A DNA stretch of 64,000 bases from Escherichia coli O157:H7 (GCF_013167455.1 NZ_CP038328.1), one strand, 5' to 3'. Shown: positions 50,701-59,700, counted from the first letter of the stretch. Numbers are program-made.

Positions 50701-53700
50701 TTCTCTACTATGAGATAAGAAATTTCATATTATGCTTTAAGGCTGAATGATTTGTGCAAAATATAATTATTTTTCCATCGAACATGAGGTGTATGTCATA
50801 AGATTAAATGATAACTATGTATTCCTCGCGGTGAATTATATGAGGTAAAAGATGAAAATTGGAACTGTGGCAGGTACTAACGACAGTACAACGACAATCG
50901 CAACAAATGATATGGTGCAAGAGCATGTTACTAACTTCACTAAAGAACTGTTTGGGTATATTGCAAATGGTATAGGTGATGATATATCAAGTATTGCCAG
51001 GACAATGCTCGGTGAGGTTCTGGAAAAAGTAGATGATTGGCAAATAGAACGGTTCCAACAATCTATTCAAGATGACAAAATTTCATTTACCATACAAACG
51101 GATTATTCAGAAAAATATAGTATGCTATCGGGCATGCGTGCTCATATTCTACGTAGGAATAACCATTATCAGTTTATTGTGACGATTAATAGCAAAAATT
51201 ACGGTTGCCCTCTTGATAATACCGATATTAATTGGTGCGGCATTGTTTATTTACTTAATAATATGACAGTAAATGATAATGCTAATGATGTTGCAGTTAC
51301 TGAGTCGTACAAACCCATCTGGAACTGGAAAATATCGCAATACAATGTATCTGATATTAAATTCGAAACAATTATAAAACCCCAGTTCGCTGACAGAATC
51401 TATTTCTCCAATTGTTCACCTGTTGATCCCACAAGTACCAGACCAACCTATTTTGGTGATACCGATGGCTCAGTTGGTGCAGTTTTGTACGCGCTTTTTG
51501 CAACGGGACATTTGGGAATCATGGCTGAAGGAGAAAATTTCCTTAGCCAGTTGCTTAATATAGAAGATGAAGTTCTCAATGTATTGCTAAGGGAGAACTT
51601 TAATGAGCAAGTTGATACTAATGTTAATACAATAATCAGTATCCTGAACAGAAGAGACATTATTTTAGAAAGTCTTCAGCCTTATTTAGTTATTAATAAA
51701 GACGCAGTGACGCCATGTACGTTTTTGGGTGACCAAACCGGCGATCGATTTAGTAATATCTGTGGCGATCAATTTATCATCGATTTGTTAAAACGCATAA
51801 TGAGCATCAATGATAACGTTCATGTATTAGCTGGAAATCATGAAACGAATTGCAATGGTAACTATATGCAGAACTTCACGCGTATGAAACCACTTGATGA
51901 GGATACCTACGACGGGATAAAAGATTATCCTGTATGTTTCTATGACTCCAAATACAAAATAATGGCAAATCATCATGGGATAACTTTTGATGATCAGCGA
52001 AAACGTTACATTATAGGACCGATAACGGTCTCTATTGATGAAATGACCAATGCTCTCGATCCGGTCGAATTAGCGGCAATTATTAATAAAAAGCATCATA
52101 CTATAATTAATAGTAAAAAGTTTAAAACTAGCCGGGCTATCTCTTGTCGATCCTTTAATCGTTATTTTTCTGTTTCGACAGATTACAGACCTAAACTTGA
52201 AGCACTATTAGCATGCTCACAAATGTTAGGTATAAATCAAGTTGTTGCACATAACGGTAATGGTGGAAGAGAATGCATAGGTGAAACGGGGACAGTTTTA
52301 GGTCTTAACGCCCGTGACAGTAAACATACGGGAAGAATGTTCAGCATGCATAATTGCCAAATTAACCCTAGTGCGGGGCCTGAGATAACCACTCCCTGGA
52401 AGTCTTACCAACATGAAAAAAACAGAAATGGACTTATGCCTTTGATTAGAAGGCGCACAATGTTACAGCTCTGAACCATAGACAACATGAATATTAATGT
52501 TACTATCTGGTTGAGACTGTTGATAAAACGTAATAAGGAATGCTCTGTTCCTGCAACTGAACAGGCGTGAAACGCTATCCAACAGGATGGATACCGTTTT
52601 GTCAGCCAGTTTTATAGATCACACTTATGAGTATGCGTGTTTCATTTACGGCCAGGAATGCTGATGATGACAACATTACTACCCGTTTTCACTAAGCCTT
52701 CCCCGTTGGCGCTCAATGCTCTGCGCGCTGGTCGTATTTGTCGTTTCCTTCTTATCCCGGATGGAAGAATCCGCTGAACGTCGTTCGGCGGCAGTTGTAA
52801 CACGCGTCGTTTGCTTACAGGGATTATGGCGGGTCGATTATGGATAAGAGTAAGCGCCATCTGGCGTGGTGGGGTGTCGGGTTACTGGCGGTGGCTGCTA
52901 TCGTAGCGTGGTGGCTGTTGCGCCCGGCAGGTGTGCCGGAAGGCTTTGCCGTCAGCAATGGGCGCATTGAAGCGACGGAAGTGGATATCGCCAGCAAAAT
53001 TGCCGGGCGTATCGACACCATTCTGGTGAAAGAAGGCCAGTTTGTTCGCGAAGGCGAAGTGCTGGCGAAGATGGATACTCGCGTGTTGCAGGAGCAGCGA
53101 CTGGAAGCCATCGCGCAAATCAAAGAGGCACAAAGCGCCGTTGCCGCCGCGCAGGCTTTGCTGGAGCAACGACAAAGCGAAACTCGCGCCGCACAGTCGC
53201 TGGTTAATCAACGCCAGGCCGAACTGGACTCCGTTGCCAAACGTCATACGCGTTCCCGCTCGCTCGCCCAACGAGGGGCTATTTCTGCGCAACAGCTGGA
53301 TGACGATCGCGCCGCCGCTGAGAGCGCCCGAGCTGCGCTGGAATCAGCAAAAGCCCAGGTTTCGGCTTCTAAAGCCGCTATAGAAGCGGCACGCACCAAT
53401 ATCATTCAGGCGCAAACCCGCGTCGAAGCCGCACAAGCCACTGAACGGCGCATTGCCGCAGATATCGATGACAGCGAACTGAAAGCCCCGCGTGACGGAC
53501 GCGTGCAGTATCGGGTTGCCGAGCCAGGGGAAGTGCTGGCGGCAGGCGGTCGGGTGCTGAATATGGTCGATCTCAGCGACGTCTATATGACCTTCTTCCT
53601 GCCAACCGAACAGGCGGGCACGCTGAAACTTGGCGGTGAAGCCCGGCTGATCCTCGATGCCGCGCCAGATCTGCGTATTCCTGCAACCATCAGTTTTGTC

Positions 53701-56700: not shown

Positions 56701-59700
56701 TAAAGCGATGCTGACATTGATTGTCTTCTCGTTTACGGTGTCGGTGTATTCGTCAGCGACCGTCACGCCAGGATCGTTGAACCTGGCACCGATCGCCATT
56801 GCCGATATGGATCAATCGCAGTTATCGAACCGGATCGTTAACAGCTTCTATCGCCCGTGGTTTTTGCCACCGGAGATGATCACCGCCGATGAGATGGATG
56901 CCGGACTGGACGCCGGGCGTTATACCTTTGCGATAAATATTCCGCCTAATTTTCAGCGTGATGTCCTCGCCGGACGCCAGCCAGATATTCAGGTGAACGT
57001 CGATGCCACGCGCATGAGCCAGGCATTTACCGGCAATGGGTATATCCAGAATATTATCAACGGTGAAGTGAACAGCTTTGTCGCGCGCTACCGTGATAAC
57101 AGCGAACCGTTGGTATCGCTGGAAACCCGGATGCGCTTTAACCCGAACCTTGATCCCGCGTGGTTTGGCGGGGTGATGGCGATCATCAACAACATTACCA
57201 TGCTGGCGATTGTATTGACCGGATCGGCGCTGATCCGCGAGCGTGAACACGGCACGGTGGAACACTTACTGGTGATGCCGATAACGCCGTTTGAGATCAT
57301 GATGGCGAAGATCTGGTCGATGGGGTTGGTGGTGCTGGTGGTATCGGGATTATCACTGGTGCTGATGGTAAAAGGCGTGTTGGGCGTACCGATTGAAGGC
57401 TCGATCCCGCTGTTTATGCTGGGCGTGGCGCTTAGTCTGTTTGCCACCACGTCAATCGGCATTTTTATGGGGACAATAGCGCGTTCAATGCCGCAACTGG
57501 GGCTGCTGGTGATTCTGGTGCTGCTGCCGCTGCAAATGCTTTCCGGTGGTTCCACGCCGCGCGAAAGTATGCCGCAGATGGTGCAGGACATTATGCTGAT
57601 CATGCCGACGACACACTTTGTTAGCCTCGCGCAGGCCATTCTCTACCGTGGTGCCGGATTCGAAATCGTCTGGCCGCAGTTCCTGACGCTGATGGCAATT
57701 GGCGGCGCGTTTTTCACCATTGCGCTGCTGCGATTCAGGAAGACGATTGGGACAATGGCGTAAGGAAGGGAAACTTGACTTCATACTGTGATGTCATACT
57801 ATTGATGTCATAAAGTGAAGTCATAAGGACATGCCATGAGAACCAAGGTACAGGCTTTACGGAAGAAACAAAAAAATACATTGGATCAAATATTTAAAAC
57901 TCCTGTTCCTCAAGGGATCAAGTGGTCTGATATAGAGTCACTGGTTAAAGCATTAGGCGGAGAAATTAAGGAAGGAAGAGGTTCGCGTTGTAAGCTCATA
58001 CTAAATATGAGCGTTGCGTGTTTCCATCGGCCTCATCCGTCGCCAGATACCGATAAAGGCGCTGTAGAAAGCGTGCGTGACTGGTTACTAAGTATAGGGG
58101 TAAAACCATGATCAAACTGAAGACGCCAAACTCTATGGAGATTGCCGGGCAACCTGCTGTTATCACTTACGTGCCAGAACTGAATGCATTTCGTGGCAAA
58201 TTCCTGGGCTTGTCAGGTTATTGTGATTTTGTCTCTGACAGCATTCAGGGGCTGCAAAAAGAAGGGGAACTTTCCCTGCGAGAGTATCTTGAGGATTGTA
58301 AAGCTGCGGGTATTGAGCCGTATGCGCGTACAGAAAAGATTAAGACCTTTACGTTACGCTATCCAGAATCGCTGAGTGAACGCCTTAATAATGCGGCTGC
58401 GCAGCAACAAGTCTCTGTTAATACCTATATTATTGAAACACTGAATGAGCGTTTGAATCATTTATAACTTATAGCGGCCCAACAATTTCTGTTGCGCCGC
58501 TATATTTTTGTGGCTCTTAAGATGCCTTTCTAACCAACCGATGCCCCTCATTCATCATCAGGATTTTGCTATACACATCTTCCTCGACGGCGTTTTTTGC
58601 TGATGCCATGACTCGTGCCAGATTCGCCTCGTTGTGATTATTCACATACGCTTTGCCGACGGCGGTGATAAACGCTTTGCGCAGATCGCTGGCGATATTT
58701 ACTTTAGCGACGCGATAATTAACAAAGCTGCGTAATATCTCCGGGGCGATACCGGAGCCGCCGTGAATAACCAACGGCACCGGACAGACTTCGGCAATGC
58801 GCTTCAGCAGGGGGATATCGATACGCGGTATATCGTCCAGGCCATGAACGTTGCCAATAGAAACTGCCAGCATGTCGCAACCGGTACGCTCGACAAAGGT
58901 CTTCACCTTTTCCGGTTCCGTTTTGCAATCGGCTTCGCTGACGTGATCATCTTCTTTGCCGAGAATCGCCCCCAGCTCCGCTTCAACCGGTACGCCATAG
59001 GATTTACAGAAATCGACAGCTTCCTGGGTGAAAGCGATATTCTCTTCAAAAGAGAATGCGGCACCGTCAATCATGACCGAGGTAAAGCCCGCGCGCACCG
59101 CCTGTTTAACATCCTCCTGGGTTTTCCCGTGATCCAGATGAAGACTGACCGGAACATCCATTTTATCGGCGTGACGTTTCACGATTTCATAAATGTAATC
59201 GTATCCCGAGAGTTGTGCATTGGTTGGCGCAATCTGAATGAAGTTGGGTAATCCCGAACGCTCAATAGCGTTTAAAATTGAAATTGTCGTCTCCAGATTG
59301 GTGGTATTAAATGCGCCCGCTAATACCCGTTTTTCCTGAATGCGGTCGAGCAGTATCCGTCCATTAACTAATGGCATATTGAAAACCTCATCTTTTAATA
59401 TCAGTTAATTATTCAGCTTCACCGAAGCGGTCGCGAAATAAGTCGGTGAGAGTCTGTATGGCCTCGTTTTCATCATCACCGTCGCAGCGTATTTCCACCG
59501 TTTTTCCGCCTTTTATTCCGGCGCGCATAATATTCATCATGCTGGTGGCATTAATATCATTACCCTCATAGTGCAGCGTCACTTTACAGCTATATTTTTT
59601 GGCGGCTTTCGCCAGACAGGCCGCCGGACGTGCATGCAGGCCAGTACTGTTTCTGACCTCCACGGTTTTATTCAACATAGTGTTCCTCTCGATGATGTAA

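Follow-up and report, generated by a model that had tools for sequence, protein, structure and literature searches.

The genes yhiI, rbbA and yhhJ follow one another on the plus strand of a 64,000 nucleotide (nt) stretch of Escherichia coli O157:H7 DNA (GCF_013167455.1, NZ_CP038328.1), which is referred to below as the window and from whose first letter all positions are counted. Our analysis makes it quite probable that the three genes, probably preceded by the small gene yhiY, constitute one operon for an adaptor-dependent ATP-binding cassette (ABC) exporter of the ABC-2 type (type V fold), the E. coli paralogue of YbhGFSR, and that the name 'ribosome-associated' borne by RbbA likely does not denote its main function. 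A preliminary description of the window had suggested that yhiI, rbbA and yhhJ are translationally coupled genes for a membrane fusion protein, a fused ATPase-permease and an ABC-2 permease. This composition agrees with the Pfam domains of the three products, with their colinear homology to YbhGFSR and with the synteny of 80 loci from other species. The gene coordinates, which were the same in the list of open reading frames (ORFs) and in the RefSeq annotation (taken from E. coli genomes of 100% identity), are the following:

52840 to 53907, plus strand: yhiI, coding for a periplasmic adaptor (membrane fusion protein) of 355 amino acids (aa) with an N-terminal membrane anchor (Pfam, YbhG homology, AlphaFold)
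53904 to 56639, plus strand: rbbA (old name yhiH), 911 aa, two nucleotide-binding domains (NBDs) followed by an ABC-2 permease (Pfam, NCBIfam NF033858, hydropathy, AlphaFold)
56639 to 57763, plus strand: yhhJ, an ABC-2 permease of 374 aa, the second membrane half (Pfam, NCBIfam, YbhR homology, hydropathy)

The 5.3 kb around the locus are 100% identical to several O157-type genomes, and at an identity of at least 95% the locus was found on the chromosome, and nowhere else, of 5413 among 5426 complete E. coli genomes.

YhiI matches the Pfam families HlyD_3, HlyD_D23 and Biotin_lipoyl_2, and hydropathy indicates a single N-terminal transmembrane (TM) segment (aa 8-26). Its AlphaFold model, built from 70 sequences, has a predicted local distance difference test (pLDDT) score of 93.4 and consists of a TM helix (aa 3-27), a lipoyl and a beta-barrel domain and a hairpin approximately 95 Å long, whose two helices span aa 81-144 and 150-211 (64 and 62 residues); the fourth, membrane-proximal domain is absent from the model. 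The top PDB matches of the model were EmrA chains in EmrAB-TolC, EmrA alone and then MacA in MacAB-TolC, and AcrA and MexA were also among the top matches. All parts expected of an adaptor, that is, the lipoyl and beta-barrel domains, the coiled-coil hairpin and the N-terminal inner-membrane anchor, were thus found by the combination of Pfam, model and hydropathy.

RbbA has two Pfam ABC_tran domains followed by ABC2_membrane_3 at aa 569-903. Its layout can be described as NBD1 (approximately aa 12-250), a linker of 23 aa, NBD2 (approximately aa 276-500) and an ABC-2 permease (aa 540-905), with the Walker A motifs at aa 45-52 and 309-316 and the Walker B motifs at aa 168-174 and 428-434. The permease domain contains six TM helices starting from aa 559, and a periplasmic domain (approximately aa 584-716) is inserted after TM1. 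In the AlphaFold model (pLDDT 86.8, 77 sequences) the two NBDs are followed by a helix preceding TM1 and by the six TM helices, and the periplasmic domain is of mixed alpha/beta structure (approximately aa 586-705). The best PDB match of this model was the beetle lipid exporter ABCH-9C (about 677 aligned columns, 22% identity), of which about 640 residues are modelled, consistent with one NBD plus a membrane domain; next came tandem-NBD proteins, with EttA matching loosely. YhhJ has the ABC2_membrane_3 domain at aa 25-364 and consists of TM1, a periplasmic domain (approximately aa 43-180) and TM2-6. By hydropathy approximately 135 residues are extracytoplasmic after TM1 in both proteins. Because YhhJ matches the permease part (positions 539-906, E=2.5e-42) of the RbbA model of NCBIfam, the two membrane halves can be regarded as paralogues. 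That model, NF033858, is an equivalog of RbbA's own, named 'ribosome-associated ATPase/putative transporter RbbA'; a putative transporter is already named in the NCBI product name, too. The NCBIfam drrA/nodI and drrB/nodJ models also gave matches. Among the matches listed, the best sequence matches with known structure were the NBDs of ABCA and ABCH proteins for RbbA and ABCH-9C for YhhJ, and neither sequence nor fold comparison listed a closer solved structure for either protein. Because these listed matches include no solved close relative, this class of exporters merits structural work.

The closest relationship to another E. coli system was that to YbhGFSR, encoded in the cecR-ybhGFSR operon. 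In BLASTP alignments YhiI and YbhG were 30% identical (E 4e-30), the two NBDs of RbbA were 40% and 41% identical to NBD1 and NBD2 of YbhF (E 3e-70), the transmembrane domain (TMD) of RbbA was 32% identical to YbhS (E 1e-50), and YhhJ was 25% identical to YbhR over the full length (E 4e-34). Both systems are built from four modules that follow one another in the same way, first the adaptor, then the tandem-NBD ATPase and the two ABC-2 permeases, and the gene junctions overlap in ybhG-ybhF-ybhS-ybhR, too. Judged by these alignments, rbbA appears as the equivalent of a ybhF-ybhS fusion, which unites the ATPase and the first permease in one protein of 911 aa. The two units also differ in their surroundings: a gene for a TetR-type regulator (cecR) adjoins ybhGFSR but not rbbA, whereas the rbbA unit has the leader ORF yhiY. 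Cefoperazone and tetracyclines are named as YbhGFSR substrates in the accessible part of the literature searched, which names none for YhiI-RbbA-YhhJ. The features that characterize the YHIH/YbhGFSR-like class, i.e. an adjacent adaptor gene in the same orientation, tandem NBDs, two ABC-2 domains and colinear homology to YbhGFSR, were all present. Passages of a 2021 Chem Rev review (PMC8277102) place YbhFSR in the MacB/FtsX family and call ybhF an adaptor gene; contrary to these passages, YbhF is an ATPase, and RbbA's ABC-2 domain has its homologue in the permease YbhS.

Residues at the ATP sites were counted in 77 RbbA-type sequences. The Walker A lysine, the Q-loop glutamine and the Walker B Asp-Glu pair are invariant in both NBDs. 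The signature of NBD1 is LSGGM in 76 of the 77 sequences, with four of its five residues invariant, and the signature of NBD2 is LPLG in approximately 70 (P409 is present in 74 and L410 in 70). The switch histidine is never found in NBD1, where it is replaced by Ala (69 sequences), Ser (6) or Asn (2), and is present in NBD2 (His466) in all 77. If the NBDs form a head-to-tail dimer, as is assumed here, the consensus ATP site is predicted to consist of the Walker motifs and switch histidine of NBD2 together with LSGGM of NBD1, and the degenerate site of NBD1, which lacks the switch histidine, together with LPLG of NBD2. Since the non-canonical signature and the switch histidine of the opposite domain are both conserved, RbbA fits asymmetric ABC ATPases with one degenerate site. 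Such a site is typical of heterodimeric ABC exporters (TM287/288, TAP, CFTR). YbhF has the same pattern, with LPLGF in NBD2 and no switch histidine in NBD1. From this pattern E433 in NBD2 is predicted to be the residue on which hydrolysis depends.

The junctions between the three genes are tight. The following features were located there:

53904 to 53907, plus strand: ATGA, overlap of the rbbA start and the yhiI stop (sequence, GAGG upstream, homologous junctions)
56629 to 56634, plus strand: AGGAGG, Shine-Dalgarno sequence for yhhJ within the last rbbA codons, K-Q-E (sequence)
56636 to 56641, plus strand: ATGATG, 1-nt overlap of the rbbA TGA and the yhhJ ATG (sequence, annotation, orthologue junctions)

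At the first junction the sequence reads gcaATGAcg, so that the ATG of rbbA overlaps the TGA of yhiI by 4 nt, and GAGG is found 9-12 nt upstream of the rbbA start. This overlap had been pointed out in the preliminary description, and both sequence and annotation bear it out. Positions 56629-56644 read aggagggATGATGcgc. Here the yhhJ frame contains two ATG codons, at 56636 and 56639, and the rbbA stop is the TGA at 56637-56639. Orthologues begin at the methionine that precedes a conserved arginine, and the first of the two positions is occupied by GTG in Citrobacter; because of this, the start of yhhJ is assigned to 56639, as annotated, with a 1-nt overlap (TGATG), and the alternative start at 56636 was rejected on the basis of the orthologue junctions. 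The overlap that had been noticed at 56636-56641 is therefore real, and the orthologues fix its exact form. Taken together, the features expected of translational coupling are present at both junctions: the ATGA, the TGATG at 56637-56641, and the AGGAGG inside the upstream gene. A single overlap of this kind is unremarkable in itself, since stop/start overlaps are common and four further gene pairs on the same strand overlap within the same 17-kb stretch. In contrast to one overlap alone, the conservation of the junctions, described next, exceeds chance.

A search of 1.84 billion representative proteins yielded full-length NBD-NBD-TMD relatives down to approximately 32% identity, and on their metagenomic contigs the gene order was adaptor, RbbA-like protein, ABC-2 permease; upstream of one metagenome relative (P0127) no adaptor was recognisable, a case that is not checkable on DNA. 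Scanning one genome per species gave the 80 loci from other species mentioned above, which span alpha-, beta-, gamma- and deltaproteobacteria, Myxococcota and Lentisphaerae. In every one of these loci that had an upstream flank, the genes for the adaptor, the NBD2-TMD protein and the second TMD protein were in this order on one strand. The start codons of the homologues were assigned from where they fall in the alignment with E. coli, a rule that may somewhat inflate the count of exact overlaps. By this rule the adaptor and RbbA genes overlap by 4 nt (NTGA) in 41 of 71 loci and by 1 nt in four more, and the distance between the RbbA and permease genes is -4 to +7 nt in 74 of 80. The codons AAR-CAG-GAG (Lys-Gln-Glu), which carry AGGAG for the next gene, precede the RbbA stop in most of the 80 loci; at the protein level K908 is present in 71, Q909 in 70 and E910 in 53 of the 77 sequences. 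Because both the junctions and the Shine-Dalgarno codons are kept across loci, the tight junctions must be considered a conserved trait of the whole family instead of a chance feature of one locus.

Some loci and sequences deviated from the common pattern. In a metagenome-assembled genome (MAG) of Desulfuromonadales (L011, 8939-13777) the RbbA-type cluster is followed by a second one with an adaptor, a separate ATPase and permease(s), which resembles the unfused YbhGFSR layout, so that both paralogous forms stand in tandem. The only locus with a Bacteroidota label (L043, from a MAG labelled Alistipes senegalensis) shares its layout with a locus from a Burkholderiaceae MAG (L050), the upstream neighbours of the two being homologous, and its contig is probably mis-binned; the RbbA-type family may be confined to Proteobacteria-like lineages and Lentisphaerae. 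Ten E. coli protein clusters (P0001-P0010, 1272-1286 aa) correspond to RbbA read through into YhhJ (56560-56641). In the four cases that were read, the frameshifts were at different points in the last approximately 25 rbbA codons, one of them in the A-run at 56622-56627. A natural RbbA-YhhJ fusion architecture was rejected on account of the scattered frameshifts, two of the four scrambling the last TM helix, and the read-throughs are probably sporadic mutations or assembly errors.

Genes for an outer-membrane factor recur next to the cluster in relatives. The gene directly upstream of the adaptor gene belonged to the Pfam family OEP and had the same orientation in 15 of 53 scanned loci, and no other Pfam family occurred more than twice among these 53 upstream genes. 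By BLAST clustering, an OEP-type gene was found beside the cluster in 17 of 68 loci (16 upstream and one downstream), always on the same strand, and in many of these loci the coordinates show that its predicted stop overlaps or abuts the predicted start of the adaptor gene.

Upstream of yhiI two further features probably belong to the same unit:

52479 to 52506, plus strand: sigma-70 promoter-like sequence, TAGACA-16-TACTAT with a TG extension, upstream of yhiY and yhiI (consensus scan)
52664 to 52777, plus strand: yhiY, a small leader gene of 37 codons, MMTTLLPVFTKPSPLALNALRAGRICRFLLIPDGRIR, which is a candidate for a regulatory upstream ORF (uORF) (RefSeq)

Shimada et al. (2014) list TAGACA/TACTAT as the constitutive RpoD promoter of the operon 'yhiI-rbbA-yhhJ' (PMC3946193), and this promoter is identical with the match found at 52479-52506. 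The same operon name, yhiI-rbbA-yhhJ, is given in a table of FlhDC targets obtained by systematic evolution of ligands by exponential enrichment (SELEX). The consensus scan of 52300-58200 detected only two promoter-like sites on the plus strand, the one at 52479-52506 and another at 57775-57802, before hicA, and none inside yhiI, rbbA or yhhJ. The operon arrangement put forward previously is thus supported by the listing in the literature with one promoter and by the conserved junctions, and separate promoters, which had been named as the observation that would speak against it, were not detected within the genes by the scan. Terminator-like matches were uninformative (8 versus 6.9 expected), with none convincing after yhhJ, and an Rfam scan of 52300-58000 gave no match at E<=1.

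The start of yhiY has been mapped through ribosome profiling, and the YhiY protein has been seen by mass spectrometry at approximately 1000-3000 copies per cell. Adams et al. observed an increase of over 2-fold for a yhiI fusion when rho was mutated, and their uORF candidates include yhiY-yhiI, where an RNA 3' end was located less than 200 nt after yhiY. The leader of approximately 330 nt (52513-52840) folds somewhat better than its shuffled versions (z = -2.35), and a 9-bp hairpin (CCGCUGAACG/CGUUCGGCGG) begins at the yhiY stop codon. The transcription unit probably starts with yhiY, which the preliminary description had missed, and the yhiY leader may serve uORF-controlled attenuation. YhiY is 86% conserved in E. 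albertii and is found in Citrobacter as fragments only, which indicates that this layer is specific to the genus.

These observations can be combined into a working model. RbbA supplies both ATPase domains and one membrane domain and YhhJ the second, homologous membrane domain, so that together they make up a pseudo-heterodimeric full transporter, and YhiI is an EmrA-like adaptor anchored in the inner membrane, with its hairpin of about 95 Å. Translational coupling would set matched amounts of the subunits. YhiI would form a tube in the periplasm, seated on the RbbA and YhhJ periplasmic domains and docked on an outer-membrane channel, which in E. coli is presumably TolC, because the E. coli locus has no channel gene. 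ATP hydrolysis at the consensus site would drive the export of a substrate that is probably hydrophobic or amphipathic. Expression would be low and restrained by Rho-dependent termination within the leader that contains yhiY.

Several points weigh against an adaptor-dependent exporter encoded by one operon. No substrate, efflux phenotype or complex of YhiI, RbbA and YhhJ, or with TolC, is reported in the literature searched, and the accessible part of a 2021 review on tripartite pumps (PMC8277102) does not mention YhiI or RbbA. We infer co-transcription and translational coupling from sequence and database listings, and the start-codon rule used for the homologues (see above) bears on the number of exact overlaps. 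Older biochemistry reportedly placed RbbA on ribosomes, where it stimulated peptide synthesis, and the NBDs may have a cytoplasmic contact. An outer-membrane factor gene is missing from the annotated E. coli locus and from the immediate vicinity of the cluster in about three quarters of the homologous loci. This last point would suit a pump that works in the inner membrane and periplasm only, without an outer-membrane channel, and moves, for example, a lipid or another envelope component to the periplasm or the outer leaflet; such a function would also be in line with the lipid exporters ABCH-9C and ABCA being, among solved structures, closest to the RbbA half-transporter. We consider it rather improbable, because of the same-strand outer-membrane factor genes in 17 of 68 loci, many of them abutting or overlapping the adaptor start, and because the YhiI model has a long hairpin like that of its best matches, EmrA and MacA. 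In solved complexes the EmrA/MacA hairpin contacts TolC, and MacAB, EmrAB and AcrAB use the unlinked tolC gene in E. coli, which also speak against a pump of two layers. As to the origin of the operon structure, stop/start overlaps are frequent in E. coli, as the four other pairs within 17 kb illustrate, and consensus promoter scans are weak evidence either way; the overlaps might then be due to chance and the three genes be expressed independently from separate promoters. The lack of internal promoter-like sites on the plus strand, the listing as one operon with one promoter and the conservation of junctions and gene order across phyla make this hardly credible.

The name of RbbA raises the question of a function in translation. 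It would have to be assumed that RbbA is mainly a ribosome-bound translation factor, releasing deacylated tRNA from the E site, and that its position in the operon is incidental or a relic. The gene name and the NCBI product name retain the ribosome function, the tandem NBDs of RbbA align with the ribosome-bound EttA and other ABCF proteins, with low TM-scores (0.21-0.41), and earlier biochemistry is summarised in the introduction of a 2011 PLoS One paper (PMC3083400). This paper, which tied RbbA to the 30S subunit and to YhjD, is marked as retracted. Furthermore, RbbA has an ABC-2 permease domain with six TM helices, an RbbA-mCherry fusion was spread over the membrane in vivo (PMC6788730), the linker between the NBDs has only about 23 aa, and no match to ABC_tran_Xtn, the ABCF linker, was found at E<=1e-3. 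With a membrane domain present and the long inter-NBD linker absent, RbbA lacks the hallmarks of ABCF proteins. Moreover, in every flanked locus RbbA occurs with its fused permease and alongside an adaptor and a second permease; this is unexpected for a translation factor, and the conserved gene set indicates that the main role of RbbA is transport. A role primarily in translation is therefore distinctly unlikely; the ribosome-associated name is weakly supported, and most likely 'ribosome-associated ATPase' does not describe the main function. An intermediate solution would be a dual role, in which the exporter also docks on ribosomes or on a cytoplasmic partner through its degenerate NBD1, coupling export to translation or to YhiY. 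NBD1 keeps Walker A and B with the switch histidine in 0 of 77 sequences, a conserved asymmetry that could serve regulation, the leader contains a translated small ORF, and ribosome binding appears among the older reports summarised in the introduction of PMC3083400. Against this, YbhF shows the same pattern, and YhiY is limited to Escherichia, whereas the pump is widespread. One degenerate site is also common in heterodimeric exporters and needs no extra partner. A dual role therefore seems very unlikely. For its most specific form, in which RbbA-YhhJ-YhiI contacts ribosomes through the degenerate NBD1 and thereby links translation to export (sensing of stalled ribosomes, or export of nascent or leader peptides), we see only a slim chance; if true, the NBD1-ribosome contact would bring the older ribosome data and the transporter architecture into agreement.

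The exporter interpretation favoured here can be compared with other known systems and with previous classifications. In the classification of Dassa (ABCdb) yhiH, i.e. rbbA, is the type member of the 'YHIH' subfamily in the DRI family, a classification that gives neither mechanism nor substrate. An inventory of Brucella describes YHIH systems as consisting of a membrane fusion protein, ABC2 (or a fusion of ABC2 and an inner membrane (IM) protein) and an IM protein, with the function 'unknown / putative drug resistance' (PMC2821768), and a 2020 paper counts 'YhiH/YhhJ' among five predicted ABC drug pumps of E. coli (PMC9728188). Indirect hints come from a single-nucleotide polymorphism found in a genome-wide association study for microcin C, and from Salmonella, in which the gene is co-expressed with ciprofloxacin heteroresistance. 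The YhiI model fits EmrA of EmrAB-TolC best and MacA of MacAB-TolC next, at sequence identities of 17-19%, and shares with EmrA the N-terminal TM anchor, the long hairpin and the lipoyl and beta-barrel domains. In contrast to EmrAB and MacAB, the engine is here an ABC-2 (type V-like) heterodimer instead of a major facilitator superfamily protein (EmrB) or an ABC protein of the MacB/FtsX type. Among type V exporters (ABCH, ABCG, ABCA; DrrAB/NodIJ), the NBD2-TMD part of RbbA fits the ABCH-9C structure and its NBDs match ABCA/ABCG by sequence; compared to the eukaryotic type V proteins and DrrAB, the RbbA system has in addition a further NBD at the N-terminus, a second permease as a protein of its own, periplasmic domains of approximately 135 aa after TM1 and an obligatory adaptor gene. 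With ABCF proteins (EttA, Uup, YbiT, YheS) RbbA shares two ABC domains per chain, and its tandem NBDs superpose loosely on EttA. It differs from them in its permease domain with six TM helices, in its transporter gene context and in the linker of approximately 23 aa (NBD1 ends at about aa 252 and NBD2 starts at about aa 276), which contains no P-site tRNA interaction motif (PtIM).

The transporter interpretation was thus not new, neither in its general form nor in most of its details, and the arrangement is real and ordinary; our results leave the picture of the type of system unchanged. Beyond the preliminary description, they support that the system is paralogous to YbhGFSR and that its coupling is conserved; they add the EmrA-like nature of the adaptor, the asymmetry of the ATPase, the yhiY leader and the finding that relatives carry outer-membrane factor genes. 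YhiI-RbbA-YhhJ is among the last E. coli ABC exporters without known substrate, and its database name points to translation; all sequence, structural and comparative features examined here point to adaptor-dependent efflux. Three handles have been gained: a conserved architecture of four parts, with genes for outer-membrane factors present in relatives, the asymmetry of the ATPase, and a leader with a translated ORF and Rho-dependent termination. This leader may explain low expression and absent phenotypes.

The genes upstream of the promoter, yhiL (48980-50590) and yhiJ (50852-52474), are DUF4049 paralogues of 36% identity. The preliminary description had hinted at a connection between these genes and the exporter, for which we found no support. 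They form an island of 33-38% GC that ends just upstream of the promoter at 52479-52506, the operon having 51-60% GC; the table of Shimada et al. (PMC3946193) lists yhiJ with a separate promoter and an H-NS mark; and the upstream genes that were scanned in other species included no DUF4049 gene. The link was rejected on the basis of base composition, the separate promoter and the absence of a conserved neighbourhood. Both DUF4049 proteins contain metallophosphoesterase-like motifs, GDxxGDR and GNHE (e.g. FLGDHTGDRFS ... VLAGNHE), the second has a sub-threshold match to Pfam Metallophos (E=7.7e-4), and the first also carries DUF6860. By these motifs DUF4049 may be a divergent calcineurin-like phosphoesterase.

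On the other side, 72 nt downstream of yhhJ, lies the toxin-antitoxin gene pair hicA (57836-58111) and hicB (58108-58467), which overlap by 4 nt. No clear terminator was found between yhhJ and hicA, and hicA is preceded by its own promoter-like site at 57775-57802. Beyond hicAB a sugar phosphotransferase system (PTS)/aldolase cluster is encoded on the opposite strand.

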